A stretch of DNA of 64,000 nucleotides, taken from a bacterium (GTDB taxonomy: Bacteria > Patescibacteriota > Minisyncoccia > Moranbacterales > GWC2-37-73). Made by a program: the position numbers and the translations under genes. The notes under the pieces were generated by a model. The model had not been told where the DNA came from. It was given only the letters and a program-made list of their open reading frames with translations, and ran no database searches. Shown piece after piece: positions 540 to 59,162 of this stretch. The DNA lies in assembly GCA_037140955.1 (NCBI GenBank), contig JBAXDL010000005.1, positions 12,334-76,333 of the forward strand. The letters are read 5' to 3'. The stretch's first letter is position 1, and each line of letters starts with the position of its first letter.

Positions 540-1193
540 ATGACAATCGGGAATAAGAGAGGAATGGAGCTCTTCAAAAGAGCTGGGGCGCTGCTTGAGG
601 GTCATTTCAGGCTCCAAAGCGGCAAAGATGGCATTCATTACATCGCCAAGGATCTTCTTTGGCAAAATGATTATGCCGCAATGGGAGAAATTTGTGACAG
701 TATTGCTACGGATTTTTTCCCAGAAGATATCGATGCTGTTGTTGGTCCGGAAAGTGGTGCAGTGAAATATGCTCAGTTTGTCGCTGAGGCACTGTCGCTT
801 ATGGACAGGCAACTGGTGTATGCAGTCAAGGCAAAGAAATGCCTGATTGGAGAAAAAAAGTTTTTCATTGAAAAGGATGATCTGGATTTGATTGTTGGAA
901 AAAGAGTTCTTATTGTTGAAGATGTCCTGACTACCGGCGAAAGTGTTGCCAAGGTCGTTTCTTTAGTTTCAAAACTTGGTGGAGTTGTTATTGGAGTTGG
1001 GGCCGTTTGGAATCGGGGAGGAGTCACTGCCAGAGACTTGGGAGTGCCACTTCTTATCTCGCAAATAACAGAACAATTTCCAACCTTTGATCCAGGGATT
1101 ACATGTCCTGGATGCTGTGCAGAAATTCCATATGATCTGAAATGGGGTCATGGAAAAAATATTGTCTATACTGAAATGATACTACCAGAATGA
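540..1193 (+). CDS. pyrE: orotate phosphoribosyltransferase-like type I PRTase
   Basis: N-terminal 'GHFRLQSGKDGIHYI' and PRPP-binding 'VLIVEDVLTTGES' motif; unusual Cys-rich C-terminus (CPGCC). Confidence 0.65.
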   Translation: MTIGNKRGMELFKRAGALLEGHFRLQSGKDGIHYIAKDLLWQNDYAAMGEICDSIATDFFPEDIDAVVGPESGAVKYAQFVAEALSLMDRQLVYAVKAKKCLIGEKKFFIEKDDLDLIVGKRVLIVEDVLTTGESVAKVVSLVSKLGGVVIGVGAVWNRGGVTARDLGVPLLISQITEQFPTFDPGITCPGCCAEIPYDLKWGHGKNIVYTEMILPE

Positions 1194-19335: not shown

Positions 19336-19471
19336 TGAATCCGGTAGTGAAAATTCAAAAGAAGGGAATATCGGATTGTTTCTGGAATGTTTTTAATCCA
19401 ATATGTAGCATTTTTATATAATTAAGAATTTTTTGAGCAAAGCTCATTTGAATTTCTACTACCGGATGAAT
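19336..19471. repeat. about 22-bp imperfect inverted repeat bracketing the secD 5' leader and start codon
   Basis: atgaatccggtagtgaaaattc ... gaatttctactaccggatgaat; the right arm contains the secD ATG. Confidence 0.5.
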
Positions 19472-21142
19472 ATAAAGAAAAAATTACAATTAAAATTTGG
19501 TGGGATTATTGTTTTGGCTTTAATGTGCGGCTTGTTTTCATATCCTCAAATTGTTAGCAAGGCTCCTCCTGTCTATGATTTTTTCAACAAGTTCAAGCTC
19601 AATCTCGGTCTTGATTTGCAAGGGGGATTTCATTTGGAATATAAGGCTGATGTTTCTAATATTGATTCAACAAAAGTTGCCGAGGCTATGCAAGGTGCGC
19701 AGACCGTCATCGAAAGACGAGTTAACGCTTTTGGTGTTGGCGAGCCATTGGTTCAAACAGCAAAAAGTGGACAAGAGAATCGTATTATTGTTGAATTGCC
19801 AGGAATAAAGGATATAGAAGAGGCAAAAACAAAAATCAAAGATGCTCCATTGTTGGAATTTAAAGAAGAAGGTCCGGTTGATGCTCAAGTTCAGCAAATG
19901 TTTGATCAAGCAAATCAGCAGGCAAAAGAAAAGGCTGCAAAAATTCTTGATGAGGTGAAAAATGGTGGTGATTTTGCGCAACTTGCAAAAGACAATAGTG
20001 AGGATCCAGGCTCAAAAGACAAAGGTGGTGATTTGGACTTTGTGAAAAAAGGAGCCTTTGTTCCTGAATTTGATAAAGTTTTGTTTGATTCAAATTTGAA
20101 GAATGGGGATATTTATCCTGATTTGGTTGAATCAACTTATGGATGGCATATTATCAAATTCATTGAATCTCGCGGTGAGGGTGCTGATTTGGAAGTTCAT
20201 GCTCAGCATATTCTTTTTTTGAAAAAAGATCCTTCTCAATATGATCAGTTCAAATATCAAACAACAGGATTGACTGGAAAAAATTTGAAAAGTGCTACTG
20301 CGCAATACTCTCAAGGACAAGGCCTTGGTGAGCCAGAGGTTGCTTTGCAATTTGATGAAGAAGGAACAAATCTTTTTGCTGAGTTGACCAAGAAAAACCT
20401 TGGCAAAAAAATAGCCATCTTTCTTGATGGAGAGTTGCAAATAGCTCCAACTGTTCAGGTTGAAATTACTAATGGTCAAGCGGTTATTACCGGAAATTAT
20501 ACTTTCAAAGAAGCAAAGGATATTTCTGACAGATTGAATCAAGGAGCGCTTCCAGTTCCTTTGACCTTGGTTGGACAACAGAGTGTTGAGGCAACTCTTG
20601 GGGCTGATTCGCTGCGAAGCATTTTGATTGCTGGTGCAATTGGACTTGGTGCAGTGATTGTCTTCATGCTTATCTTCTATCGCTTCTTGGGATTGGTAGC
20701 CTCACTGGCTTTGCTTATTTATACTGTTGCAATGATTACGCTTTTCAAGATGACTGGAATTACTTTGACACTTTCTGGTATTGCAGGGTTTGTGCTTTCA
20801 ATTGGAATGGCGGTGGACGCAAATATTTTGATTTTTGAAAGAACAAAAGAAGAAATTAGAGGTGGTCGCTCAATTGCAAACTCATTGGAAGAAGGATTCA
20901 AGCGTGCTTGGACTTCAATTCGTGATGGAAATGTTTCTTCATTGCTCACTTCTGGAATTTTGTACTTGATGGGAACTGGATTTGTGAAAGGATTTGCGGC
21001 TGCACTTTTCATTGGAGTAGTGGTTTCCATGTTTACTGCGGTGGTGATTACTCGTACAATGCTTAAGTTTATTATTAGTGATTGGATTCATGGAAGAACA
21101 TGGATGGTTGGAGTTAGAAAAAAGGATATTAAAAATGGATAA
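19466..21142 (+). CDS. secD: protein-export membrane protein SecD with an embedded parvulin (PpiC/PrsA-type) PPIase domain
   Basis: SecD P1 start 'GLDLQGGFH', C-terminal TM bundle 'GMAVDANILIFER'; internal segment 'NGGDFAQLAKDNSEDPGSKDKGGDLDFV...STYGWHIIK' matches the parvulin fold; the track ORF starts at an alternative TTG (19433). Confidence 0.85.
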   Translation: MNIKKKLQLKFGGIIVLALMCGLFSYPQIVSKAPPVYDFFNKFKLNLGLDLQGGFHLEYKADVSNIDSTKVAEAMQGAQTVIERRVNAFGVGEPLVQTAKSGQENRIIVELPGIKDIEEAKTKIKDAPLLEFKEEGPVDAQVQQMFDQANQQAKEKAAKILDEVKNGGDFAQLAKDNSEDPGSKDKGGDLDFVKKGAFVPEFDKVLFDSNLKNGDIYPDLVESTYGWHIIKFIESRGEGADLEVHAQHILFLKKDPSQYDQFKYQTTGLTGKNLKSATAQYSQGQGLGEPEVALQFDEEGTNLFAELTKKNLGKKIAIFLDGELQIAPTVQVEITNGQAVITGNYTFKEAKDISDRLNQGALPVPLTLVGQQSVEATLGADSLRSILIAGAIGLGAVIVFMLIFYRFLGLVASLALLIYTVAMITLFKMTGITLTLSGIAGFVLSIGMAVDANILIFERTKEEIRGGRSIANSLEEGFKRAWTSIRDGNVSSLLTSGILYLMGTGFVKGFAAALFIGVVVSMFTAVVITRTMLKFIISDWIHGRTWMVGVRKKDIKNG

Positions 21143-34650: not shown

Positions 34651-34740
34651 GAAAGGGGGAAGATGAGTTGTAACTTAAAAAAAGGGGGAGGATGCATTGA
34701 AATTGGCGCTGTCAAAAAAGAAAGGGGAGGTTATGATTAA
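34651..34740 (+). promoter_or_regulatory. leader with three tandem strong SD sequences and a 25-codon uORF that overlaps the main start
   Basis: aaagggggaagATG (34663), aaagggggaggATGcatTGA (34692), aaaggggaggttATG (34733); the uORF stop TAA at 34738-34740 overlaps the main ATG. Confidence 0.45.
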
Positions 34741-35770
34741 CATTGATTTGGATATGGGCATTCACACCATGCGAATGCCACATGGAATCAAGAAGCTTTT
34801 TTTGGATATGATCCAATCATTGGACATTACCCAGGGAAATTTTAAGATTCACTTGGGCAAGAACATTCGAGGAGTTAGTCAGAAGGGTATAAAATTCATT
34901 AAGGTTCTGCCACAGTATTGCGCCATTTGGGTCAAGGCGCAGCCTTCCGGCAAGGAAGGCCGTCATGAATGCACGGTATATTTTCCAGATATTTATAAGA
35001 ATGATCTTGGAAAGTTTGGCGAGCTTCTGCAGTCAAAAGTTGGTCAGGAAGATTGGGCTGATGAAGAGGTTATTCCTGAAGAGGAAATTGCTACAACTAT
35101 GGATGATGTTAAAGCTACCATAATTGATGTTGAACATGTTGAGAATGCTATTATTAGACAGCAACAATATCAAGCTGAAGCATTAATCTTGAGTGCGGAA
35201 ATGCTATCTCTCATTGTCGGTGATATTTTTGAAAAAAAAGGCACTGGCTGGATTTTCAAGAGTGCATTGTTCAAGATTTTGAATAATTTGAAACTGCAAT
35301 ACGCTACTAATAAGTTGATTGGAAGACTTTTCCATTTGGGATATCTTGAAAGAGATCCTGAGAATCTTGAAAAAAGAAGTCGACTGACTCAATCGGCATG
35401 TCTGCTTATCAATGCTCCGATCCCGCTTGACACTGGACACAAGATTGTCATTGGAAGTAGTGAAGATGACTTGAAAGTTTATAATGCTGTAGATTTTCTT
35501 CGAAGGTCGAACGCAATTTATAAAAAGCTTTTAATTAATCAGTCAAAGGCTTTTGATGAACTCGAAAAGCTTAAGTGTGCCGATGAGAAATTGCAAAAAA
35601 GAATCTCACGTCTTGCGGAATTGATGGAAGTGAAGATGCAGGAAAATCTGGTCATGATTAATGAAAAAAGTCTTGAGATAGAAAAAATTTCACAAGGCAT
35701 AACGCCTCGCTTGATTGAGGCATCAAAAAGATTTGAGATTATTATGGCAGATGATCTGCCTCCAGAATAA
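34733..35770 (+). CDS. hypothetical protein
   Basis: 345 aa from an ATG with ideal RBS aaaggggagg; the track ORF begins at an alternative TTG (34697). Confidence 0.55.
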   Translation: MINIDLDMGIHTMRMPHGIKKLFLDMIQSLDITQGNFKIHLGKNIRGVSQKGIKFIKVLPQYCAIWVKAQPSGKEGRHECTVYFPDIYKNDLGKFGELLQSKVGQEDWADEEVIPEEEIATTMDDVKATIIDVEHVENAIIRQQQYQAEALILSAEMLSLIVGDIFEKKGTGWIFKSALFKILNNLKLQYATNKLIGRLFHLGYLERDPENLEKRSRLTQSACLLINAPIPLDTGHKIVIGSSEDDLKVYNAVDFLRRSNAIYKKLLINQSKAFDELEKLKCADEKLQKRISRLAELMEVKMQENLVMINEKSLEIEKISQGITPRLIEASKRFEIIMADDLPPE

Positions 35771-35869: not shown

Positions 35870-36376
35870 ATGAAAAAGAAAATTATTGTCGTTAATGACA
35901 AAATGCAAAAAAATTATAGTTACGAACTTTCGCAGCCTATGGGGAAAAATTTTGATCCTCTTTTTGCGCCAGAGTTGACACCAAGGCAAATGCTGGAACT
36001 CGGTGTTTTTGGTGGAAAATACATGACAGATTGTCAAAATGAATTTCCGCATGATTGGTTTTCTTTTGCCAAATTGAGCAGCAAAAAACGCGATAAAAAT
36101 CTAAATTTTTTTGGAGTTAATGCTAGTCAGTCTTTGAAGGAATGGCGCCGCAATGGCTGGATTGAGGTTAATGATCCACGCGGGTGGTTTCAATGGTATT
36201 GTAGATATTATATGGGAAGGCGCTGCGGCGATGATATGCGGCAGATAAAGCGCTGGAGGGCTTTTATTAGGCACTATAGTGCGGTTAAGAATAATTGCTT
36301 TGCTTTTGATTTTTCTTGTCGAACTCGTCAACGTCAGGCACTTTTGCATTGGGCCTATGACAGTCGAAAAATATGA
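35870..36376 (+). CDS. conserved hypothetical protein with Trp/Arg/Tyr-rich C-terminal motif
   Basis: 168 aa; 'RGWFQWYCRYYMGRR...RQIKRWRAF'; family not recognised. Confidence 0.5.
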   Translation: MKKKIIVVNDKMQKNYSYELSQPMGKNFDPLFAPELTPRQMLELGVFGGKYMTDCQNEFPHDWFSFAKLSSKKRDKNLNFFGVNASQSLKEWRRNGWIEVNDPRGWFQWYCRYYMGRRCGDDMRQIKRWRAFIRHYSAVKNNCFAFDFSCRTRQRQALLHWAYDSRKI

Positions 36377-36410
36377 TTTTTTGCCTTAGTGTGGCCAAGA
36401 TATGTTGTTA

Positions 36411-36439
36411 TTGACAATTTTACTAAAAAATGTTACTAT
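36411..36439 (+). promoter_or_regulatory. sigma70-type promoter (TTGACA-17-TACTAT)
   Basis: consensus boxes about 70 nt upstream of the M16 peptidase start. Confidence 0.5.
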
Positions 36440-36480
36440 TAAACGTCCTAAAAAGGATTGTTAACTTAAAAACCCAAAGT

Positions 36481-36501
36481 CCACGGACTATAAAAAGGAG
36501 G
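36481..36501 (+). promoter_or_regulatory. conserved 5'-UTR motif (CCACGGACTATAAAAAGGAGG), copy 1
   Basis: 17/17 identity to the core ACGGACTATAAAAAGGA at 37923-37942 upstream of the next peptidase gene. Confidence 0.5.
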
Positions 36502-36507
36502 TTTCAC

Positions 36508-37782
36508 ATGCAAACAGGACTCGAAGGAACACATCGGTTGCACGACACTGCCAGGTTTGCAAGATGTCGGCTAAGTAATGGGATTACAGTTTGGCTGCAA
36601 AAGACGGATATCATGGTTGACCATGAAGGATATTTGTCGATGTTTTTCAAGAACGTTGGATCAGCTAATGATCCGAGAGGCTTGGATGGTCTGGCTCATT
36701 TTTTGGAGCACATGCTATTCAGGAAAAGCTTCACCCATGACAGCGAAACAGCATTGAAAGATTTTGTTGTAAGCAATGGGGGAGAAATTAATGCTCGCAC
36801 CAATGCAGAATTCACTGAGTATTATGTCATGTTGGACACTGCTCATTTTTCAGAGGCCTTGCAATCATTGCATTCCTTGGTTTGTGAGCCAGTTTTCGAT
36901 CTCCAGGATGTTGTCTTGGAATCAAAAATTATTTTACAAGAATTTTTGAAATCAAAGGCTCGTAGCAGCTTCCTTGTAGGTGAGCACATCAGAAGATTCT
37001 TGTTGGCTAAAAACGATCCATTTAATCATGCTGTGCTTGGAAATCCCGCAACGATCAAGAGGATTTCTCAGCAGGATATTTATGATTTTTATCATAAATA
37101 TTATCACACCGGAAATGCAAATATCATTTGCGGTGGGAGCTTTGCTAGAATTCCAAATGTCTTGGAGGAGCTCGAAATGGCATTTGGCATGATGTGCAAA
37201 GGTAAGACATGTGAACCAGTTTTTTATGCTGGCAGTGCAATCAAGAGTGGAAATCATCGCTTTTTGGATAAGCGATATCCAAATGAAAATTTGAGTATAC
37301 AATATTGTTTGCCAGTACTTACCTATGAAGAAAGAATTCCACTCATGCTTTTGCTGGAATCATTAGCAGGCAGGACAGGTGCACCATTTGACACTGAAGT
37401 AAGGATTATGCGCGGTTTGACCTATCATATTGATGCGGAAGTCATCACCAACCATTTTGAGTCATTGATTGACGTCGAATGCGAACTTGATTCAAACAAT
37501 TTTGAATTGGTGAATGAAATATTCCTGGAAAAACTAGCAACCCTTTCAGAGGAATGTATTTTGAAATATGTTAAGTCAATTCAGCAGGAGAGGCTTATTA
37601 AATTTCAGCATCCCATTAGTGCATGTAAAAGTGTTGTTTCGGAAATAGTTTATTTTGGTAAGTCAATCTCTTGTCGCGAGCATGAAAGGCTCATTGACGA
37701 GACAGATATTACTGACATCTTTGCCTGGAAAAATGAACTCCAATCAACAAGGCAGAGAGTCTTGGAATTAAGAATAAAATAG
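36508..37782 (+). CDS. M16-family (pitrilysin/insulinase-like) zinc peptidase
   Basis: inverted zinc motif 'HFLEHMLF' (HxxEH) plus downstream 'NARTNAEFTEYY'; start placed at the ATG with GGAGG RBS (the longer ORF begins at 36430). Confidence 0.8.
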   Translation: MQTGLEGTHRLHDTARFARCRLSNGITVWLQKTDIMVDHEGYLSMFFKNVGSANDPRGLDGLAHFLEHMLFRKSFTHDSETALKDFVVSNGGEINARTNAEFTEYYVMLDTAHFSEALQSLHSLVCEPVFDLQDVVLESKIILQEFLKSKARSSFLVGEHIRRFLLAKNDPFNHAVLGNPATIKRISQQDIYDFYHKYYHTGNANIICGGSFARIPNVLEELEMAFGMMCKGKTCEPVFYAGSAIKSGNHRFLDKRYPNENLSIQYCLPVLTYEERIPLMLLLESLAGRTGAPFDTEVRIMRGLTYHIDAEVITNHFESLIDVECELDSNNFELVNEIFLEKLATLSEECILKYVKSIQQERLIKFQHPISACKSVVSEIVYFGKSISCREHERLIDETDITDIFAWKNELQSTRQRVLELRIK

Positions 37783-37794
37783 TTTTTTGTGCAT

Positions 37795-37829
37795 GGACCG
37801 CTTCGAATTTTCGAAGCGGTCCATTTTTT
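37795..37829 (+). terminator. rho-independent terminator
   Basis: ggaccgcttcgaa/tcgaagcggtcc perfect stem followed by attttttg. Confidence 0.75.
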
Positions 37830-37830
37830 G

Positions 37831-37859
37831 TTGACATATCAAAAAAAATAAGGCATAAT
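37831..37859 (+). promoter_or_regulatory. sigma70-type promoter (TTGACA-17-CATAAT)
   Basis: consensus -35 box directly after the terminator. Confidence 0.45.
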
Positions 37860-37922
37860 TTAAAATCAAAAAGAAAAATAGTCTAACGATTGTCTTTTAA
37901 ATGGTACTTTAAAAATCTAGAG

Positions 37923-37942
37923 TCTACGGACTATAAAAAGGA
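37923..37942 (+). promoter_or_regulatory. conserved 5'-UTR motif (TCTACGGACTATAAAAAGGA), copy 2
   Basis: see copy 1 at 36481. Confidence 0.5.
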
Positions 37943-37943
37943 A

Positions 37944-38627
37944 ATGGAGGGGATTATGAGGAAAAGAGATGGAATGTCGCTATGGAAGCTGATAGAATAT
38001 ACTCTTCAAATGTCTAATGTTTTAATTCATGAAAATGTTAGTCAGGAAAAACTCTCTAAAATAAGGGATCATTTTAACAGAAGGGAGTATGAAAAAGTTA
38101 TTATTGGACTAATGGAAACCATAGACTTGGAAACAAAAATACAGCTTGATTTTATGCCTGATAATTTTATTTTGGATGAATTGAAGAAGATGTCTGGCTA
38201 TGAATGGGCTTTGAAGTCAGCATCCATGATGGGCCTATCGTTTTCTGTTTTTTCCTACAAAAAACCGGCCTATGTTTTGGTTGGCGATGAGATGCCATGC
38301 TTTCGATCAAGAATTTTTCAAGAGCACGTCACACAAATGAGAATTGGCGAATCTGTAAAGTTTGAGTCCTTTGAAAGTTTTGTCACAATTGTCATGCACG
38401 AACTTATGCATATAGTTTTGTTTTCTCGTCAGCATCCACTGCGAAGAAATGAGCTGGCGACAGACATTGGCATTTTGCTGGCTGGATATGGAGATATTGC
38501 AAAGCTTGGAAGAATAGGGCAAAGTGCTAGATTTGGATATTTAAATTGTAAAGAATTTGCATTTGTTCATCGTCTGGTTGAATTGATTAAATTTTTTAAG
38601 CGCAAAAAAAAGATTAAAAATAACTAA
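37944..38627 (+). CDS. putative HExxH zinc metallopeptidase
   Basis: 'VMHELMHIV' HExxH motif; the start may instead be 37956. Confidence 0.55.
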   Translation: MEGIMRKRDGMSLWKLIEYTLQMSNVLIHENVSQEKLSKIRDHFNRREYEKVIIGLMETIDLETKIQLDFMPDNFILDELKKMSGYEWALKSASMMGLSFSVFSYKKPAYVLVGDEMPCFRSRIFQEHVTQMRIGESVKFESFESFVTIVMHELMHIVLFSRQHPLRRNELATDIGILLAGYGDIAKLGRIGQSARFGYLNCKEFAFVHRLVELIKFFKRKKKIKNN

Positions 38628-38636
38628 TAAAAAAAC

Positions 38637-38680
38637 AAAGGACTTATCTAAATAGATAAGTCCTTTTTGCTTTTTTAAAG
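38637..38680. terminator. bidirectional terminator between convergent genes
   Basis: aaaggacttatcta/tagataagtccttt perfect stem followed by ttgctttttt. Confidence 0.7.
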
Positions 38681-39100
38681 CTAGCTCAATCGCATGGAAA
38701 TGAGCCTTACTGGTCTTGTTTGATGAGTTGAATTGCCATAAAACTTGTGTTGAAAAATGAAATCTTCCCAGAAATCTGTTCCTTGCACATTTTTTTTGAT
38801 CAAATAACCGCCATTCTTGTCTCTGTATGTTGTTACGTTTATGTTCTCTATGATCTTAAAGTCTCCTCTTGTTGTTGTGCCTTCGGCATAGACAAGGCCT
38901 TCAATGCTAGTGTCATACTTCAGTGGAGTTTCTTCTGGAGCAAGAAAAGCAAAATAGAAAGGGAATTTCATGTCTTCATATTTTCCAAACACAATCACTT
39001 TCATACCTTTTTTGACATCTTGCACGCTCGGAAAGCCATTATTTTTTTTAATGTGCATGTTTTTCTCCTCCATGATTTGAGTTATGGCAATTTTTGCCAC
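38681..39100 (-). CDS. hypothetical protein
   Basis: 139-aa ORF. Confidence 0.45.
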   Translation of the reverse strand: MAKIAITQIMEEKNMHIKKNNGFPSVQDVKKGMKVIVFGKYEDMKFPFYFAFLAPEETPLKYDTSIEGLVYAEGTTTRGDFKIIENINVTTYRDKNGGYLIKKNVQGTDFWEDFIFQHKFYGNSTHQTRPVRLISMRLS

Positions 39101-39245
39101 TTGTTTGCTTGCATTATAATGTTTTTGTTTTTCAAAGTCAATTCTGGCTGATATTGCTTGAGTAATACAAAAAAGAAGCGTAGAATGTTAACATGTATTG
39201 GTATATTACATTAGATATTAAAATCTTAAACTAAAAAATATAAAC

Positions 39246-39809
39246 ATGAAAACACTTATTATTCTGGCTCATCCAAGCAAATATGGTTTTTCGCGGAGAA
39301 TAGCCAATGAATATGCTAAGGGCGCCAAAGAAAAAGGCATGGAGGTTGAAATTTTGGATTTATATCAAGATGAAAATAAGCAAGATTTTTTGATTTTTGA
39401 TGATATCAAAAGCGTGCCACCTGATCCAAGTGTCACAAGGATGCAAGAGAAAATAACAGCTGCAGATGAATTGGTTTTTGCTTTTCCTCTTTGGTGGTTT
39501 GCTGAGCCTGCAGTTTTAAAAAATTTTTGGGACAAAAACATGACAACTCATTATGCTTATCAATATGTTTCAGGCAAACCAGTCGGATTGCTTTTGGGAA
39601 AAACTGCCAGAGTTTTTGTTACTTCTGATGGATCAAAGATGATTCACTGGTTGCTTTTAAATCCAGTAAAAACAATTTGGTGGTTGGCCAGGTTGAGATT
39701 TTGCGGTATTCAGATGAAGTCTTTTGTACTTTTTGATGACATGTTCAAAAGAAGCGAAGCAAATAAGAGCAATCAGCTCAAGAAGGTTTTTGAGATTGCA
39801 AAAAATTAA
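39246..39809 (+). CDS. flavodoxin-like fold NAD(P)H-dependent oxidoreductase (FMN reductase / NQO-like)
   Basis: 'MKTLIILAHPSKYGFSRRIANEY' and 'FAFPLWWF' typical of the Flavodoxin_2 family. Confidence 0.75.
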   Translation: MKTLIILAHPSKYGFSRRIANEYAKGAKEKGMEVEILDLYQDENKQDFLIFDDIKSVPPDPSVTRMQEKITAADELVFAFPLWWFAEPAVLKNFWDKNMTTHYAYQYVSGKPVGLLLGKTARVFVTSDGSKMIHWLLLNPVKTIWWLARLRFCGIQMKSFVLFDDMFKRSEANKSNQLKKVFEIAKN

Positions 39810-39863
39810 TTAATTTTTTTTGATGATGATAGTTTGACTTATTGTTGCGAATTTTTAAAATAT

Positions 39864-39941
39864 TTATGCGGATATTGTTTTTTTGCGGCTTCCGTGTGAA
39901 CAAAGTGAACGAAAGGCAAGTAAAAAAACAATATCTGCATA
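39864..39941 (+). repeat. intergenic structured repeat element, copy 1 (terminal inverted repeats and conserved core)
   Basis: ttatgcggatattgttttttt | gcggcttccgtgtgaacaaagtgaacgaaaggcaagt | aaaaaaacaatatctgcataa. Confidence 0.8.
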
Positions 39942-39973
39942 AAATGAAGTTGTATAATTGATAAAATTTTAGT

Positions 39974-40573
39974 ATGGATTCAAAAATAAAAAAGATTTTA
40001 GTGAAAATTGATGAGCTTAATGACGCATTGAAAAAGGAACATCTGCGCGTGGCTGAAAAATATGGCTTTTTTGTTAAAAAGAAAAAAGTTATTTTTTTGG
40101 AGAAAATTCGTAAACAAAACAAACGTTTTCGCATGCCAGCCTGGAAATATGCTGTTCCAAAAAGCATCAGACATATTGCTTCAATGCCTTTTATATATTC
40201 CATGTTGATCCCTGCTGTTATTTTGGATGTTTTCATTACGATATATCAGTTTTTTGCTTTCCCTTTATATGGAATTCCAAAAGTAAAAAGATCAGAATAC
40301 TTTGTCTATGATCGAAGATTTCTTGATTATTTGAATGTTATTCAAAAAGTTCACTGCGTGTATTGCACCTATGTGAATGGGCTTTTTGCTTATGCTGTGG
40401 AAATTGGAGCTAGAACTGAGAGGTATTGGTGTCCAATCAAAGCTGCTAGCAAACCAAAGGCATATCATGGTTGGTACAAAGAATTTGCTGACTATGGTGA
40501 TCCAGAAGAATGGACTTGCAAATTCAACGATCATGAGGCTTTTGCTGATACTGTTAAGAAAAAGGTAAAATAA
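39974..40573 (+). CDS. hypothetical membrane protein with CxxC...CP motifs
   Basis: 199 aa with a central hydrophobic segment; 'HCVYCTY...YWCPIK'. Confidence 0.45.
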   Translation: MDSKIKKILVKIDELNDALKKEHLRVAEKYGFFVKKKKVIFLEKIRKQNKRFRMPAWKYAVPKSIRHIASMPFIYSMLIPAVILDVFITIYQFFAFPLYGIPKVKRSEYFVYDRRFLDYLNVIQKVHCVYCTYVNGLFAYAVEIGARTERYWCPIKAASKPKAYHGWYKEFADYGDPEEWTCKFNDHEAFADTVKKKVK

Positions 40574-40580
40574 ACAAACA

Positions 40581-42098
40581 ATGAATCAACTTGTTATTAG
40601 AAAATTAAAAGAGTGGCGCGCGCAGATTGCAAGTCGAGATAATCTTGAGCTTTTTCGTGTTATTCCAAACAAAACAATTGATGATCTTGGTGAACTTTTG
40701 CCAATCAACAAAGAAGAACTCCTTGCAATTAAGGGCATTAAGGATAAAAAATTTGAAAAATATGGCAGACAGATTCTGGCTATCATTAATGAAACAATTG
40801 CCAATGAAAATGCGCCAATTGTGCCGGCTGTGGAGGTTGAAGATGGAAACAAGAGAAATGAAAAAATATATTCAGTTAGTTCATATTTAGATAGGATTAA
40901 TGATGATATTGCAAGAATCAGTGCTGGAATTTGTGGTGAGGTTTCAAGTGTGAGCTTCAAGGGGCATTTGTATTTTTCTTTGAAGGACAAAAATGATGGA
41001 AGCGTGCTGTCATGTTTTATGTGGGCAAGGGATTATGAAAACAGTGGCATCGAGATGCGCGAAGGCGAGGAGCTTATTATTCATGGTTTTCCTGAGATCT
41101 ATAAGCCAAATGGAAAATTCACGTTTAGAACCAGTGCCATTGAGTTGGTTGGTGAGGGAGCGCTCAAAAATGCTTATGAAGAATTGAAAAGAAAATTGTC
41201 AGCAGAAGGATTGTTTGATGAAGCAGTAAAAAAGCCAATGCCTGATTTTCCTTCGCGCATCGGCTTGATAACCTCCAGAGATGGCGCAGTTACTAATGAT
41301 TTTTTGAACAATATTGGCAGGTTTGGATATCAAATAAAATTCGTTAATTCTAGGGTTGAAGGTGCTATGGCTGTTGGCGACTTGATTGGTGCGGTGGAAT
41401 ATTTCAAAGACAAGGACATTGATTTGTTGGTTATTATTCGAGGAGGTGGCAGTTTGGAGAGCCTGCAGGCTTTTAATAATGAAATTTTGGTTCGCAAAAT
41501 TGCAGATTTGGACGTGCCCGTGATTTGTGGCATTGGACATGACAAGGATGTTCCGCTTTTGTCTTATGTTGCAGATTTAGCAGTTTCAACACCATCGATT
41601 GTAGCCAAGGAGCTTAATCGCAGTTGGGAAAAGGCTGTCGACAGACTTGATTATCACGAATTGAATATTCTAAATACTTTTGATGCAGTCCTTAAAAAAT
41701 CAGAGCGAAAATTGGAAAACAGTGTGATTGAAATTAAAGATTTTTATCAAGCTATCTTTCGAAAATTTGATTTTTATCATCAGGCGCTTGTAAATATTAT
41801 TGGCAATGTTAGTTATCTTATTAAAAAAGATCTTGAAATGGTGGAAAAAATTCCTCAGAAATTGCTGGTTGATTTTGGTAGATTGATTTTTTCGACCAAC
41901 AAATCACTTGATAATTATGAAAAGTCTTTAAGGCAGAATAATCCAGAACGCCAACTTGCCTTGGGATATAGTATTATCAGTGTTGATGGTAAAATTGTGA
42001 AATCAATCAGTGAAATTTCTGTTGGCTGTGAAATTGTCAACAAAATGAGCGATGGTCAAATAATTTCAATTGTAAAAAAGGTGGATAAAAAGAATTAA
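40581..42098 (+). CDS. xseA: exodeoxyribonuclease VII large subunit with N-terminal HhH-type extension
   Basis: OB-fold, then 'IIRGGGSLESLQAFNNE', 'CGIGHDKDVPL'. Confidence 0.85.
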   Translation: MNQLVIRKLKEWRAQIASRDNLELFRVIPNKTIDDLGELLPINKEELLAIKGIKDKKFEKYGRQILAIINETIANENAPIVPAVEVEDGNKRNEKIYSVSSYLDRINDDIARISAGICGEVSSVSFKGHLYFSLKDKNDGSVLSCFMWARDYENSGIEMREGEELIIHGFPEIYKPNGKFTFRTSAIELVGEGALKNAYEELKRKLSAEGLFDEAVKKPMPDFPSRIGLITSRDGAVTNDFLNNIGRFGYQIKFVNSRVEGAMAVGDLIGAVEYFKDKDIDLLVIIRGGGSLESLQAFNNEILVRKIADLDVPVICGIGHDKDVPLLSYVADLAVSTPSIVAKELNRSWEKAVDRLDYHELNILNTFDAVLKKSERKLENSVIEIKDFYQAIFRKFDFYHQALVNIIGNVSYLIKKDLEMVEKIPQKLLVDFGRLIFSTNKSLDNYEKSLRQNNPERQLALGYSIISVDGKIVKSISEISVGCEIVNKMSDGQIISIVKKVDKKN

Positions 42099-42124
42099 AA
42101 AAGTGAGAATATGTTGTTGCTAAA

Positions 42125-42208
42125 TTTTCATACTGATATTGTTTTTTTGTGGCTTCCGTATGAGCGCAGTGAATGAAAGGCAAGTAAAAAATAATATCAG
42201 TATGAAAA
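42125..42208 (+). repeat. intergenic structured repeat element, copy 2 (between xseA and xseB)
   Basis: ttttcatactgatattgttttttt | gtggcttccgtatgagcgcagtgaatgaaaggcaagt | aaaaaataatatcagtatgaaaa. Confidence 0.8.
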
Positions 42209-42243
42209 TTAAAAAATTAAATTCATAAGCTCTAAAAAAATAT

Positions 42244-42450
42244 ATGGAAAGTTCAAATTTGTCAGAATCATTAAAAAAATTGGAAGAAATTACTCAATGG
42301 TTTTCAAATCAACAAGATGTTGATGTGGAACAGGGACTTGAAAAGGTCAAGGAAGGAGTCAGGCTTGTCAAAGAAAGTCGTGCCAGATTGCAAGAGGTTG
42401 AAAATGAGTTCCAAGATGTGAAAAAAGACCTTGAAGCTGGCCTGGAATAG
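42244..42450 (+). CDS. xseB: exodeoxyribonuclease VII small subunit
   Basis: 68-aa helical protein 'LEEITQWFSNQQDVDVEQGLEKVKEGVRL' matches XseB. Confidence 0.8.
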   Translation: MESSNLSESLKKLEEITQWFSNQQDVDVEQGLEKVKEGVRLVKESRARLQEVENEFQDVKKDLEAGLE

Positions 42451-42503
42451 CTTTTATTTTGCATGTTTACAAGGCTTGCTAGCAATGCTATTATTTAGTG
42501 ACT

Positions 42504-43601
42504 ATGAGCACCAATAAGCCAAAAAAACGGGTAATTGTGGGCATGAGTGCCGGAGTTGATTCTTCTGTGGCTGCAGCACTATTGAAAGAACAAGGATATG
42601 ATGTCGTTGGTGTTTTTCTGCATTTTTGGAAAGAACCAGGTCAGAGTTCATTGATTGAAAACAAATGTTGCTCAATTGAGTCTCAGCAAGATGCCAGAAA
42701 AATTGCTCAAATTTTAGATATTCCACTCTATACAGTCAATGCTGCAAAGGAATTTAAGAAGGAAATTGTGGATTATTTTCTGGAAGAAATCAAGGCCGGA
42801 AGAACTCCAAATCCATGTGTGGTTTGTAATGAAAAGATTAAATTCAATTTTTTGTTTAAAAAAATGCTAGAAATGGATGCTGATTTTGTGGCAACTGGTC
42901 ATTATGCTAAATTGCAAAAAGTTGGAGATAAATTTCATTTGTACATTCCAACTGACAAAGAAAAAGATCAGACATATTTTTTGCACACGCTTGGTGAAAA
43001 ACAGCTTGCAAGAATCTTGTTTCCTCTGGGCGAGCTCAAAAAACCCGATGTCCGCAGAATGGCTGAAAAATTGAAATTGCCTGTTTTTGATAAGGAAGAT
43101 TCGCAAGGTCTTTGTTTTACTTCCGAAAAAACTCCTAATGAATTTTTGAAGCGTAATTTGAAATTGTCTGCTGGTGACATTGTTACAACTGAAGGTAAAA
43201 AAATTGGCACGCATTCTGGTTTGGAGCTGTATACTATTGGGCAGCGAAAAGGCGTGAACATTGGTGGTGATGGGCCATATTTTGTGGTTCAGCGAGATTT
43301 TGGCAATAATGTTTTGGTGGTCACGAACGACACTGTAAATGAAAAGATTTTCAAGAAAAATATGTCAGTGCAAATAAAGAATTGGTTGGGAGCTGAAATT
43401 GTTACTCCCTTGGAGCTTAATATTAAAATACGTTATAGACATCAAGCTGTGCGTGGTATAATCAAAAGTAGCAAGAAGAATAATGAAGGTTTGCTGATTG
43501 AGGTTGATTTTATTGAAGCGCAAAAAGCTGTTACCCCTGGCCAATCTGCAGTTTTTTATTCAGACAGTGAAGAGCTTTTGGGTGGTGGAGTTATTATCTA
43601 G
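42504..43601 (+). CDS. mnmA: tRNA-specific 2-thiouridylase
   Basis: PP-loop 'VGMSAGVDSSVAA', catalytic cysteines, 'YFLHTL'. Confidence 0.9.
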   Translation: MSTNKPKKRVIVGMSAGVDSSVAAALLKEQGYDVVGVFLHFWKEPGQSSLIENKCCSIESQQDARKIAQILDIPLYTVNAAKEFKKEIVDYFLEEIKAGRTPNPCVVCNEKIKFNFLFKKMLEMDADFVATGHYAKLQKVGDKFHLYIPTDKEKDQTYFLHTLGEKQLARILFPLGELKKPDVRRMAEKLKLPVFDKEDSQGLCFTSEKTPNEFLKRNLKLSAGDIVTTEGKKIGTHSGLELYTIGQRKGVNIGGDGPYFVVQRDFGNNVLVVTNDTVNEKIFKKNMSVQIKNWLGAEIVTPLELNIKIRYRHQAVRGIIKSSKKNNEGLLIEVDFIEAQKAVTPGQSAVFYSDSEELLGGGVII

Positions 43602-52852: not shown

Positions 52853-52879
52853 TTAGCACTCGGACTTGACGACTGCTAA
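52853..52879 (+). promoter_or_regulatory. CIRCE operator (HrcA binding site) upstream of hrcA
   Basis: TTAGCACTC-N9-GACTGCTAA (one mismatch in right arm); overlaps the -35 box and precedes TATAAT at 52889. Confidence 0.8.
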
Positions 52880-57900: not shown

Positions 57901-57980
57901 CTCCTGCTGATATTGTTTTTTTGCTTGCCTTTTATTCGCTTCGCTCATACGGAAGCCGCAAAAAACAACATCAGTAGGAG
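57901..57980 (-). repeat. intergenic structured repeat element, copy 4 (inverted orientation)
   Basis: ctcctgctgatattgttttttt | gcttgccttttattcgcttcgctcatacggaagccgc | aaaaaacaacatcagtaggag; the core is the reverse complement of copies 1-3. Confidence 0.8.
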
Positions 57981-59135: not shown

Positions 59136-59162
59136 TTAGCACTCAGTCATGGGGATTGCTAA
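59136..59162 (+). promoter_or_regulatory. CIRCE operator upstream of dnaJ
   Basis: TTAGCACTC-N9-GATTGCTAA, followed by a TATAAT -10 box. Confidence 0.75.

Follow-up and report, generated by a model that had tools for sequence, protein, structure and literature searches.

Two adjacent genes, encoding an M16 peptidase and a putative HExxH metallopeptidase, share an identical 17-nt string (ACGGACTATAAAAAGGA) in their leaders. We propose, with a probability of roughly 0.6, that this 17-mer is the core of a leader piece of about 41 nt that was doubled when one gene's leader was copied onto its neighbor. Most likely this is ordinary leader duplication rather than any novel form of regulation. A sister strain (L006) lacks the M16 gene exactly between the repeats, and this points toward duplication and recombination as the source of the similarity of the two leaders. 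The features concerned are listed in Table 1.

Table 1. Features of the two peptidase genes and their leaders, with positions in the window
Feature	Position	Strand	Remarks
Promoter P1 of M16 gene	36411..36439	+	TTGACA-17-TACTAT, TG-extended; promoter scan
5'-terminal leader hairpin GUCCU-AAAA-AGGAU	36445..36458	+	fold -4.2 kcal/mol, z -3.5
Repeat copy 1	36459..36499	+	41 nt: GTTAACTTAAAAA + mini-hairpin + TATAAAAAGGA
Mini-hairpin AGTC-CACG-GACT, copy 1	36478..36489	+	predicted in folds
17-mer copy 1, ACGGACTATAAAAAGGA	36483..36499	+	3' end is part of working SD (AAGGAGG, 36495-36501)
Segment missing from L006	36500..37942	+	1,443 bp: M16, terminator, P2 and repeat copy 2
M16 (pitrilysin-family) peptidase gene	36508..37782	+	424 aa, HFLEH; Pfam PF00675, PF05193
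Intrinsic terminator of M16	37793..37824	+	perfect 15-nt inverted-repeat arms; T-run
Promoter P2 of HExxH gene	37831..37859	+	TTGACA-17-CATAAT; promoter scan
Repeat copy 2	37902..37942	+	41 nt, same direct-repeat family as copy 1
Mini-hairpin AGTC-TACG-GACT (UACG tetraloop), copy 2	37921..37932	+	centroid structure
17-mer copy 2	37926..37942	+	not the working SD of the HExxH gene
Likely working SD GGAGGGG of HExxH gene	37946..37952	+	conserved in L006
HExxH (HELMH) putative gluzincin gene	37956..38627	+	223 aa, unnamed family

In the 64-kb window (the whole stretch of DNA that was analyzed), the 17-mer was exact in both leaders, as the first-pass annotation had reported, and no third copy was found even with up to 3 mismatches. 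At that tolerance the expected count is 0.21, and 0 of 100 shuffles reached 2. The conserved flanks reported alongside it proved longer than the core: the two copies match over 41 nt at 83% identity with a spacing of 1443, so that the 17-mer is the identical core of a direct repeat. All of the mismatches (7/7) fall inside the first 24 nt (hypergeometric p = 0.015, with the boundary set post hoc). A 17-nt exact repeat alone is not rare here, as the window holds 10 exact direct repeats of at least 17 nt; what distinguishes this pair is its position and its extension to 41 nt.

The sister strain is represented by a single 939-bp contig, and its arrangement is known at the assembly level only. On this contig the end of a 168-aa gene is followed by P1, the leader, a single repeat copy and the HExxH gene. 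By blastn, its positions 1-238 match window positions 36258-36496 (85.9%) and its positions 197-912 match 37899-38613 (80.2%), and the two alignments overlap in the one repeat copy. This copy is a hybrid, resembling copy 1 on its left and copy 2 on its right, and the breakpoint of the 1,443-bp segment is ambiguous within it. The two strains appear to carry a repeat-mediated deletion/duplication allele pair, with bounding direct repeats in one and a single hybrid copy in the other. A k=31 assembly chimera at the junction is unlikely, because the two window copies agree over no more than 17 consecutive nt, fewer than the k-mer of the assembler.

Loss of M16 from the sister strain is most likely a repeat-mediated deletion. 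P1 appears to be ancestrally the M16 promoter, and the L006 arrangement derived, because P1 and the hairpin at the 5' end of its leader are conserved with M16 orthologues; the direction of the change is thus read from promoter orthology, not from phylogeny. Conservation of P1 extends to L006 and, among distant M16 orthologues, to L002 and L004. The hairpin reads AUCCC-AAAA-GGGAU in L004, a compensatory change, and GUCC..GGAU in L002. The orthologues that share P1 and this hairpin (TATTAAAYGTCCT..GGAT) have only 45-48% protein identity. Between the window and L006, conservation of the P1 leader from the -35 box on is far above that of the ~30 nt just past the upstream stop codon. An equivalent of the M16 terminator, with a ttcgaattttcgaa core, follows the gene in L002 and L004.

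Each gene was said to have its own near-consensus promoter, with a perfect-stem terminator between the two, and this was borne out. P1 and P2 were both found by the scan and score 10-11/12 against the consensus, and the terminator, with its 15-nt complementary arms and T-run, is folded by the terminator scan as about 14 pairs around a 4-nt loop. Transcription of each gene from a sigma-70-type promoter of its own would place the repeat within both 5' UTRs. Other genes of the window share this layout of a TTGACA promoter and a 55-80-nt leader, and small hairpins occur at the predicted 5' ends of other leaders in the same genome. On the other hand, the weaker half-copies that had been reported in the two UTRs were not upheld: cgtcctaaaaagga is the separate 5'-terminal hairpin, and ctaacgattgtc shows a weak 8/10 resemblance that we discounted.

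The M16 product has matches to PF00675 (E = 3e-18) and PF05193 (E = 4.6e-10), the HxxEH motif is present as HFLEH, and NCBI names the protein 'pitrilysin family protein'. By these sequence features, the HxxEH motif together with an active and an inactive domain, it is a member of peptidase family M16. No homologues with between 48% and 100% identity were found in 5.8 billion proteins. The HExxH protein, unlike M16, has an 81% homologue, and its protein cluster contains nothing but this one gene under different start calls. At the sequence level it matched none of the Pfam, NCBIfam or PDB families. Single-sequence input gave an AF2 model with a pLDDT of 44, and a 51-sequence alignment was needed. 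With the HExxH motif and a downstream Glu ligand on a zincin fold, the protein is a putative gluzincin and belongs to an unnamed putative gluzincin family of ~220 aa. It is roughly double the size of the minigluzincins and M48-M56-like zincins (proabylysin, projannalysin, selecase), from which it also differs by an extra N-terminal helical half.

The start of the HExxH gene was called in four different ways by four pipelines. In the L006 orthologue an in-frame TAA lies 6 nt upstream of the ATG equivalent to 37956, and in the window the gene has its own GGAGGGG 3 nt (ATT) upstream of this ATG; for these reasons the conserved start is probably 37956, and the ATG at 37944 is probably not the true one. 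The first-pass annotation had placed the motif immediately before both start codons and had assigned the RBS of both genes to it. For M16 this agrees with the sequence: the start codon at 36508 is plausible, copy 1 ends 8 nt before it and the motif contributes to the working SD, AAGGAGG. For the HExxH gene neither statement is likely to stand: copy 2 ends 13 nt before the start and 3 nt upstream of the separate GGAGGGG.

The core is composed of three parts. The first, AACTTAAAAA, is a leader string found also before two unrelated genes of the window: GTAACTTAAAAAAAGGGG (18 nt, exact) is common to the leaders of the genes at 511 and 34670, and the 41-nt repeat opens with the same AACTTAAAAA. 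The second is a mini-hairpin, AGUC-YRCG-GACU, which in the window is private to the pair. The third, UAUAAAAAGGAGG, is the generic A-rich Shine-Dalgarno context of the genome; AAAAAGGAG(G) stands directly before the start codons of about ten other genes in the window, and the 3' 8-10 nt of the motif (AAAAAGGAGG) are likewise generic RBS context. Only the central ~14 nt (AGTCYACGGACTAT) are specific to the pair, and there the two copies match at 13/14. The suspicion that the motif is simply the genome's RBS context is thus correct for its 3' half, given the ten or so other genes, and fails for the private center.

The sequence of events that we favor can be outlined as follows. A piece of about 41 nt from the leader of one gene, in effect its translation-initiation region, would have been copied onto the neighbor, carrying with it the AACTTAAAAA leader string, the lineage-specific AGUC-YRCG-GACU hairpin with its UNCG-like tetraloop, and the UAUAAAAAGGAGG extended Shine-Dalgarno. 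It would supply the RBS for M16 and sit upstream of the separate GGAGGGG for the HExxH gene. The piece may act as a constitutive leader module, a small stable hairpin beside an unstructured A-rich region where ribosomes land, and may then affect mRNA stability or translation efficiency in a similar way for both genes. The direct repeats would have served as the recombination substrate for loss of the 1,443 bp in the sister strain, with the result that P1 would now drive the HExxH gene there.

The element is known from three copies, a paralogous pair in the window and an orthologous one in L006. Across these the stem of the mini-hairpin is invariant while the loop reads CACG, TACG or TGCG. Twenty-one positions (8 in the stem and 13 downstream) are invariant in 3/3 copies, only two loop positions vary within the hairpin and the stretch after it, and the flanks differ by 14-29%. 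These data support a shared leader that is real, homologous and constrained, with the proviso that three copies do not distinguish constraint from recent gene conversion.

The same conservation could point to a dedicated cis-regulatory element, formed by the mini-hairpin and the A-tract, that puts both zinc peptidases under one control. Such an element could be a site for an RNA-binding protein or an sRNA, or a palindromic DNA operator (AGTCC-N2-GGACT); common control at the post-transcriptional or operator level was the suggestion of the first-pass annotation. An invariant stem, a variable YRCG loop and the palindrome also fit a specific protein-binding site, and both products are metallopeptidases. 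We nevertheless consider this reading rather unlikely. The 3' end of the motif is generic RBS, AACTTAAAAA occurs in unrelated leaders, and within 64 kb there is no third copy at up to 3 mismatches. The element is missing from orthologous leaders: AGTCYACGGACTAT is not in the M16 leaders of L002, L004 and L005 or in the leader of a 40%-identical HExxH homologue (L072), the site is missing also from the M16 leader of L003, and the mini-hairpin was not found in any other CPR locus fetched. Upstream of orthologous genes, it is present only in the close strain L006. No recognizable regulator gene lies beside the pair, and M16 is dispensable in the sister strain. Duplication predicts both the adjacency of the copies and the boundaries of the indel, whereas a regulon predicts unlinked copies, as are seen for CIRCE in this window.

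A conserved RNA structure around the motif was likewise not supported. Compared to shuffles, the fold stability of the two window leaders and that of L006 was unremarkable (z -0.03, -0.46 and +1.85), and folding energies not below those of shuffles led us to reject a riboswitch- or attenuator-like structured leader. With gathering thresholds, nothing in the entire window matched Rfam 15; at E<=10, the region 36350-38000 gave only terminator-driven chance matches, far below gathering, and none on the motif. A putative closing helix of 4-5 bp, in which the bases after TTAAAAA pair with the last Gs of the SD, shows one possible compensatory change between the copies (AAACC/GGUUU vs AAUCU/GGAUU), which would favor co-regulation but is not statistically meaningful with 3 sequences. 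MAFFT cannot register the 3' strands of this helix, and 3 sequences preclude a formal covariation count.

Paired CsrA sites combine one GGA exposed in a hairpin loop with another that overlaps the SD, and the two GGA triplets 12 nt apart, one in the hairpin and one in the SD, loosely resemble them. However, the first GGA lies mostly in the stem (the last loop base and two stem bases) and not in the loop, the second is not the working SD in copy 2, and a crude signature scan, as distinct from an HMM search, found no CsrA-like small ORF in the 64-kb window. Several further candidates were rejected. The 4-bp stem followed by UAUAAAAA falls short of the G+C-rich stem of 5 bp or more and the U-run of an intrinsic terminator or attenuator and is not listed by the terminator scan, a preQ1-I-like pseudoknot is impossible with a 4-nt loop, and a shared coding peptide is contradicted by the different frames of the repeat relative to the ORF extensions at 36430 and 37890.

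It is also conceivable that the history ran in the opposite direction, with the L006 arrangement ancestral and the segment of M16, terminator, P2 and leader inserted at the leader, creating the direct repeats. Exactly this structure would result if a circular intermediate that shares leader homology were taken up by one crossover. Relatives differ in what lies between the 168-aa gene and mnmA, with only a PEMT gene in L066 and M16 directly before mnmA in L002. Different genes follow the 168-aa gene where it has close homologues. We find an insertion improbable, as P1 and the 5' hairpin are shared with distant M16 orthologues and not with L072 or the other window promoters, and the segment carries neither integrase nor transposase nor terminal inverted repeats. 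A transposable element or integron-like cassette was rejected for want of a recombinase or transposase gene and of terminal inverted repeats. The segment's gene content is M16 only, with a terminator and a promoter, and a 41-nt repeat is far longer than typical target-site duplications.

We gave little credence to the idea that the UNCG-like mini-hairpin, UAUAAAAA and SD together form a dedicated post-transcriptional or ribosome-recruitment element whose recurrence elsewhere reflects a widespread, undescribed translation-initiation signal. In collections from which the source contig was absent, AGTCYRCGGACTATAAAAA had 8 single matches in genome contigs, all in unrelated taxa and not above the about 17 expected by our own uniform-composition estimate (not a tool result), and GTCYRCGGACTATAAAAA had 51 single matches in metagenome contigs, in about 33 families. 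The same 18-23-nt string stood directly before an SD and ATG upstream of rpsD in a Bacilli MAG (L010) and upstream of genes in two metagenome organisms, two genes in the first (L029, L059) and four, including two neighbors, in the second (L042, L047, L054). This amounts to 3 of about 33 independent families vs a baseline of 4/97 for other TATAAAAA sites (hand-calculated binomial p about 0.08). We therefore treated the recurrence across organisms as chance together with local leader duplication. An S4/rpsD leader, suggested by L010, was rejected: it has no Rfam support and the window copies are not beside rpsD.

Could the repeat instead be a second, duplicated promoter, TTAAAA-17-TATAAA (spacer 18 in L006), producing very short leaders that start at or near the SD? 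It spans about -40 to +7, the hexamers and their spacing are kept in 3/3 copies, and in the unrelated contigs L042, L047 and L054 the same string comes directly after an upstream terminator, leaving little room for a promoter. This is highly improbable all the same. The scan does not list it, the -10 is without its final T and the -35 matches 4/6, while near-consensus promoters (10-11/12) are present 40-70 nt upstream. Orthologues retain P1, with the 5'-terminal hairpin where its transcript would begin, and other window genes use a TTGACA promoter with a 55-80-nt leader. Furthermore, an M16 transcript starting 6-8 nt after TATAAA would begin inside GGAGG and destroy the RBS. ECF-, sigma-B- and sigma-54-type promoters and a CtsR box were rejected by eye, as the -35 AAC, the GG/GC and the heptad repeats that they require are not kept in all three copies.

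Finally, the idea that two A-rich RBS regions resemble each other by chance or convergence, to which the ten exact direct repeats and the generic 3' half might lend color, has a negligible likelihood given the 13/14 match in the G+C-containing private half (AGTCYACGGACTAT), the 41-nt extension in the same orientation and leader position of adjacent genes, the expected count of 0.21 and a sister-strain junction that falls exactly in the repeat.

Leader duplication, our preferred reading, suggests that identical long strings in neighboring leaders of small, gene-dense CPR genomes can be products of copying, and that such leaders are built from a limited set of translation-initiation modules. The repeats may then serve as breakpoints for gene loss, as in the probable loss of M16 and capture of P1 by the HExxH gene. 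These observations caution against regulon calls from two adjacent copies. They also correct the probable HExxH start and place its protein in a family. If the minority regulatory reading were true, this would be a first leader-level regulatory element in an uncultured CPR bacterium.

The element invites comparison with several known systems. CIRCE, the operator of HrcA, is present in the same window at 52853-52879 before hrcA-grpE-dnaK and at 59136-59162 before dnaJ. Like CIRCE, the motif has dyad symmetry between the promoter and start codon of more than one gene. In contrast, CIRCE has 9-bp arms, occupies unlinked loci, is accompanied by the gene for its repressor and is conserved between phyla, whereas the motif has 4-5-bp arms, precedes two adjacent genes only, is lineage-specific and comes without an identifiable regulator. 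HrcA control of the pair was rejected, as the only two sites of the form TTAGCACTC-N9-GAGTGCTAA, at 52853 and 59136, lie away from the peptidase genes.

The 'epsilon' translational enhancer of T7 gene 10 consists of TTAACTTTA followed by AAGGAG. In the repeat, GTTAACTTAAAAA looks like epsilon with an SD after it, and so does the related GTAACTTAAAAAAAGGGGAGG from two other genes; the likeness goes no further, and the count of epsilon-like patterns in the window was not above that of shuffles (6 vs 3.6). 5'-UTR stabilizer modules are known from the E. coli ompA 5' hairpin, the B. subtilis aprE leader and the cryIIIA STAB-SD. The element has a similar predicted order of parts downstream of an ordinary sigma-70-type promoter: a short stable hairpin, then an A-rich tract without structure, then an extended SD. 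Here the hairpin is only 4 bp, has a YRCG loop and is internal rather than 5'-terminal, and the element is unrelated to the ompA, aprE and cryIIIA examples in sequence.

The history that we favor has a familiar counterpart as well. Deletion or duplication between short direct repeats takes place by RecA-independent slipped misalignment or short-homology recombination, and the lacI deletion hot spots are the classic case. Our example differs from those in that it is read from two natural strains that are 80-86% identical, with the direction taken from promoter orthology. It resembles them in that a 1.44-kb segment is flanked by direct repeats whose identical core measures 17 nt and the sister allele retains one hybrid copy.

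The 17-nt string ACGGACTATAAAAAGGA, which the first-pass annotation had reported on the leaders of two adjacent peptidase genes (M16 and HExxH), is present on both, and these are its only 2 matches in 64 kb even when three mismatches are allowed (0.21 expected). The conservation claimed for its flanks also holds: the similarity spans 41 nt at 83% identity. A scan recovered a near-consensus promoter for each gene (P1 and P2, respectively) and, between the genes, the terminator with perfect 15-nt arms. Our main reading, to which we give a probability of about 0.6, is that the 41-nt repeat is a duplicated, functionally constrained translation-initiation leader.

The repeat consists of a leader string, a mini-hairpin and an A-rich Shine-Dalgarno (SD) context. 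The first part, GTTAACTTAAAAA (GGTACTTTAAAAA in copy 2), recurs within GTAACTTAAAAAAAGGGG, an exact 18-nt string carried by two unrelated genes 34 kb apart, which suggests that the genome reuses a small set of translation-initiation modules. The second part, AGTC-YRCG-GACT, has a 4-bp stem and a UNCG-like tetraloop (CACG, UACG or, in the sister-strain contig L006, UGCG); the hairpin is predicted in folds, and the window and the related CPR loci examined contain no other copy. The third part is TATAAAAAGGA(GG). As AAAAAGGAG(G) directly precedes about 10 other start codons in the window, it is this genome's generic A-rich extended SD, and the 3' half of the 17-mer is thus generic. The suspicion that the motif might simply be generic RBS context was therefore half right, as about 14 nt are private to the pair. 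The duplicated leader would probably combine the genome's stock modules with this private mini-hairpin.

Positions of the features discussed (window coordinates, forward strand, unless a contig is named)
Feature	Position	Strand	Remark
Phosphoribosyltransferase gene	540-1193		GTAACTTAAAAAAAGGGG at 511-528, directly before its SD
SecD-like protein gene	19433-21142	+	PPIC-type peptidyl-prolyl isomerase (rotamase) domain inserted between P1 subdomains
357-aa coiled-coil-like protein gene	34697-35770		GTAACTTAAAAAAAGGGG at 34670-34687, directly before its SD
168-aa protein gene	35870-36376	+	Just upstream of M16/HExxH pair; no Pfam or NCBIfam family
Variable island	36377-42497		168-aa gene to mnmA
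P1	36411-36439		Promoter of M16 gene
Repeat copy 1	36459-36499		ACGGACTATAAAAAGGA at 36483-36499
M16 gene	36508-37782	+	
Terminator	37793-37824		
P2	37831-37859		Promoter of HExxH gene
Repeat copy 2	37902-37942		ACGGACTATAAAAAGGA at 37926-37942
HExxH gene	37956-38627	+	
Palindromic repeat, ~75 nt	~39866-39940, ~42131-42202, ~57905-57975		Three intergenic copies
xseA	40581-42098	+	Exonuclease VII large subunit; HRDC domain at N-terminus, residues 5-69
Unannotated ORF, ~70 codons	~42245-42450		Immediately before mnmA
mnmA	42498-43601		
CIRCE	52853-52879		Before hrcA-grpE-dnaK
CIRCE	59136-59162		Before dnaJ
(A)GTCTRCGGACTATAAAAA(A)GGAG	L010 1677-1709		Before rpsD, Bacilli MAG
(A)GTCTRCGGACTATAAAAA(A)GGAG	L029, L059		Two surface-protein genes, one organism
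(A)GTCTRCGGACTATAAAAA(A)GGAG	L042, L047, L054 (2719-2755, 3747-3781)		Four genes, another organism; two adjacent in L054

As annotated, the first gene encodes a standard single-chain M16 peptidase (HFLEH) and the second an HExxH protein (HELMH). A word-indexed search found 1 relative of the latter, versus 294 by an exhaustive HMMER search of 1.84 billion representative proteins. None of 51 aligned family sequences matched a Pfam peptidase family (one had a weak, unrelated USP7_C2 match), and H148, E149, H152, E166 and Y195 are conserved in this alignment. The protein belongs to an unnamed family of ~220 aa; its C-terminal half is predicted to take a minigluzincin/M48-like fold, but it differs from such proteins by its N-terminal half, which is helical and novel. 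Three starts have been given by annotation pipelines (245, 227 and 205 aa); we prefer a fourth, at 37956, giving 223 aa. The L006 ORF opens at the equivalent ATG; an in-frame TAA lies 6 nt before this codon, and GGAGGGG ahead of the start is kept there. The 205-aa start is disfavored because an N-terminal helix is confidently modelled from residue 9. Since the start at 37956 has its own GGAGGGG, which follows AAAAAGGA of copy 2 after 3 nt, that AAAAAGGA is not, as had been proposed, the working RBS. Shared ancestry of the two leaders accounts for this position more easily than does selection for an RBS.

L006, a 939-bp contig from a different sample, encodes an HExxH protein 81% identical to the window's. 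It begins in the last part of the 168-aa gene and continues through a promoter and leader of P1 type and a single repeat copy into the HExxH gene. In blastn, L006 1-238 aligned to window 36258-36496 (85.9%) and 197-912 to 37899-38613 (80.2%); the two alignments overlap by 42 nt, which is the repeat. At diagnostic positions this single copy is copy-1-like on its left side and copy-2-like on its right. The 1,443 bp comprising M16, its terminator and P2 therefore appear to be an indel bounded by direct repeats; in our main reading the leader copies also bound a repeat-mediated M16 indel. An assembly chimera is unlikely, since the longest identical run between the window copies is 17 nt.

The first-pass annotation took the shared motif as a sign of common control of both peptidase genes. 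A shared, constrained leader stands, whereas we consider a dedicated co-regulatory element unlikely. It is true that the stem and the next 13 bases are identical in 3/3 copies while the flanks diverge by 14-29% and the loop varies, that 7/7 paralogue mismatches lie in positions 1-24 of the 41 (p = 0.015 for a boundary chosen post hoc), and that a 4-5-bp helix, showing one compensatory change, could form between the bases after TTAAAAA and the final Gs of the working SD in each leader. However, no third motif copy was found in the 64-kb window, and the mini-hairpin is absent from the leaders of distant M16 orthologues (L002, L004 and L005) and of a 40% HExxH homologue (L072). An Rfam search gave no match, the leader folds no better than shuffles, and the neighboring genes include no recognizable regulator. 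Between the window and L006, moreover, conservation relative to the upstream spacer covers the entire promoter and leader, starting at the -35 box, and the motif is not singled out.

Outside the window, in two scanned collections, neither with the source contig, match counts were at or below a rough uniform-composition estimate (8 matches for a 19-nt pattern versus ~17 expected). The string (A)GTCTRCGGACTATAAAAA(A)GGAG, 18-23 nt, directly precedes the start codon in a few unrelated contigs; several of the genes behind it in L029/L059 and L042/L047/L054 encode signal-peptide/LRR surface proteins. Enrichment before SD+ATG was not significant (3 of ~33 independent families versus a baseline of 4 of 97 other TATAAAAA sites; p ~0.08, hand-calculated binomial). 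We read these recurrences as chance matches amplified per genome by leader-cassette copying, in which cassettes would be copied among neighboring or paralogous genes by the same process as in the window. The alternative built on them, a widespread dedicated translation-initiation or control element, has a low probability.

As for which way the indel arose, a TTGACA promoter precedes TATTAAAYGTCCT..GGAT in distant M16 orthologues (L002/L003, 48% identity; L004, 45%). This TATTAAAYGTCCT..GGAT is a small 5'-terminal hairpin with covariation (window GUCCU/AGGAU, L004 AUCCC/GGGAU); the same orthologues also carry a TTTAAAAA tract as well as TATAAAAAAGGAGG and a terminator similar to the window's. 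The common promoter and 5' hairpin therefore indicate that P1 is the ancestral M16 promoter. With P1 present and M16 absent, L006 is most simply a deletion derivative, and the opposite course, in which an M16 cassette was inserted, is improbable. In the protein collection, M16 has no homologue in the range from 48% to 100% identity, versus an 81% relative for HExxH, which is consistent with M16 deletion in L006. That the repeat is an internal promoter is very improbable.

The stretch from the 168-aa gene to mnmA forms a variable island among relatives. Here it comprises six genes (M16, HExxH, a 139-aa gene on the minus strand, a flavodoxin-like reductase, a 199-aa gene and xseA) and a further ORF. 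The equivalent interval in the related locus L066 (4961-5510) has a PEMT gene only, and in L002 (4500-6015) mnmA comes right after M16. A GIY-YIG gene precedes M16 in L002 and L004; in L004 (2431-3075) it is accompanied by a small Zincin_1 (PF06262) gene. M16 thus neighbors a small HExxH-type zincin in a second lineage too, although the zincin family differs. The 168-aa protein is extremely conserved, with >8,000 homologues at ~70% identity, of which at least one belongs to a Candidatus Pacebacteria MAG. The HRDC-XseA fusion is unusual. The first two copies of a palindromic repeat bracket the 199-aa gene and xseA; its arms are CTGATATTGTTTTTTTG / CAAAAAAACAATATCAG, with the center inverted in the third copy, and its fold is a hairpin of 17-21 bp (-31.1 kcal/mol and z -9.5, both for 39856-39940). 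The repeat had no match in Rfam and may be either MITE/REP-like or a large bidirectional terminator.

The window is chromosomal and comes from an uncultured bacterium, with 35-40% G+C, genes mainly on the plus strand and housekeeping genes including secA, pheT, alaS, cysS, dnaB, hrcA-grpE-dnaK-dnaJ and mnmA. It also encodes an ADP-forming acetyl-CoA synthetase type protein and a SecD-PPIase fusion, which we take to be consistent with a CPR/Patescibacteria host.

A real shared operator, CIRCE, provides a positive control in the window. Both elements read TTAGCACTC-N9-GAGTGCTAA with 1 mismatch each, and because they precede hrcA-grpE-dnaK and dnaJ, this CPR-type genome retains a classical HrcA regulon. 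Unlike the motif copies on adjacent peptidase genes, the CIRCE copies stand at unlinked loci, and the window also encodes their repressor. GTAACTTAAAAAAAGGGG and the SD of its two genes resemble the "epsilon"+SD arrangement of T7 gene 10. The repeat pair is a new instance of known phenomena.
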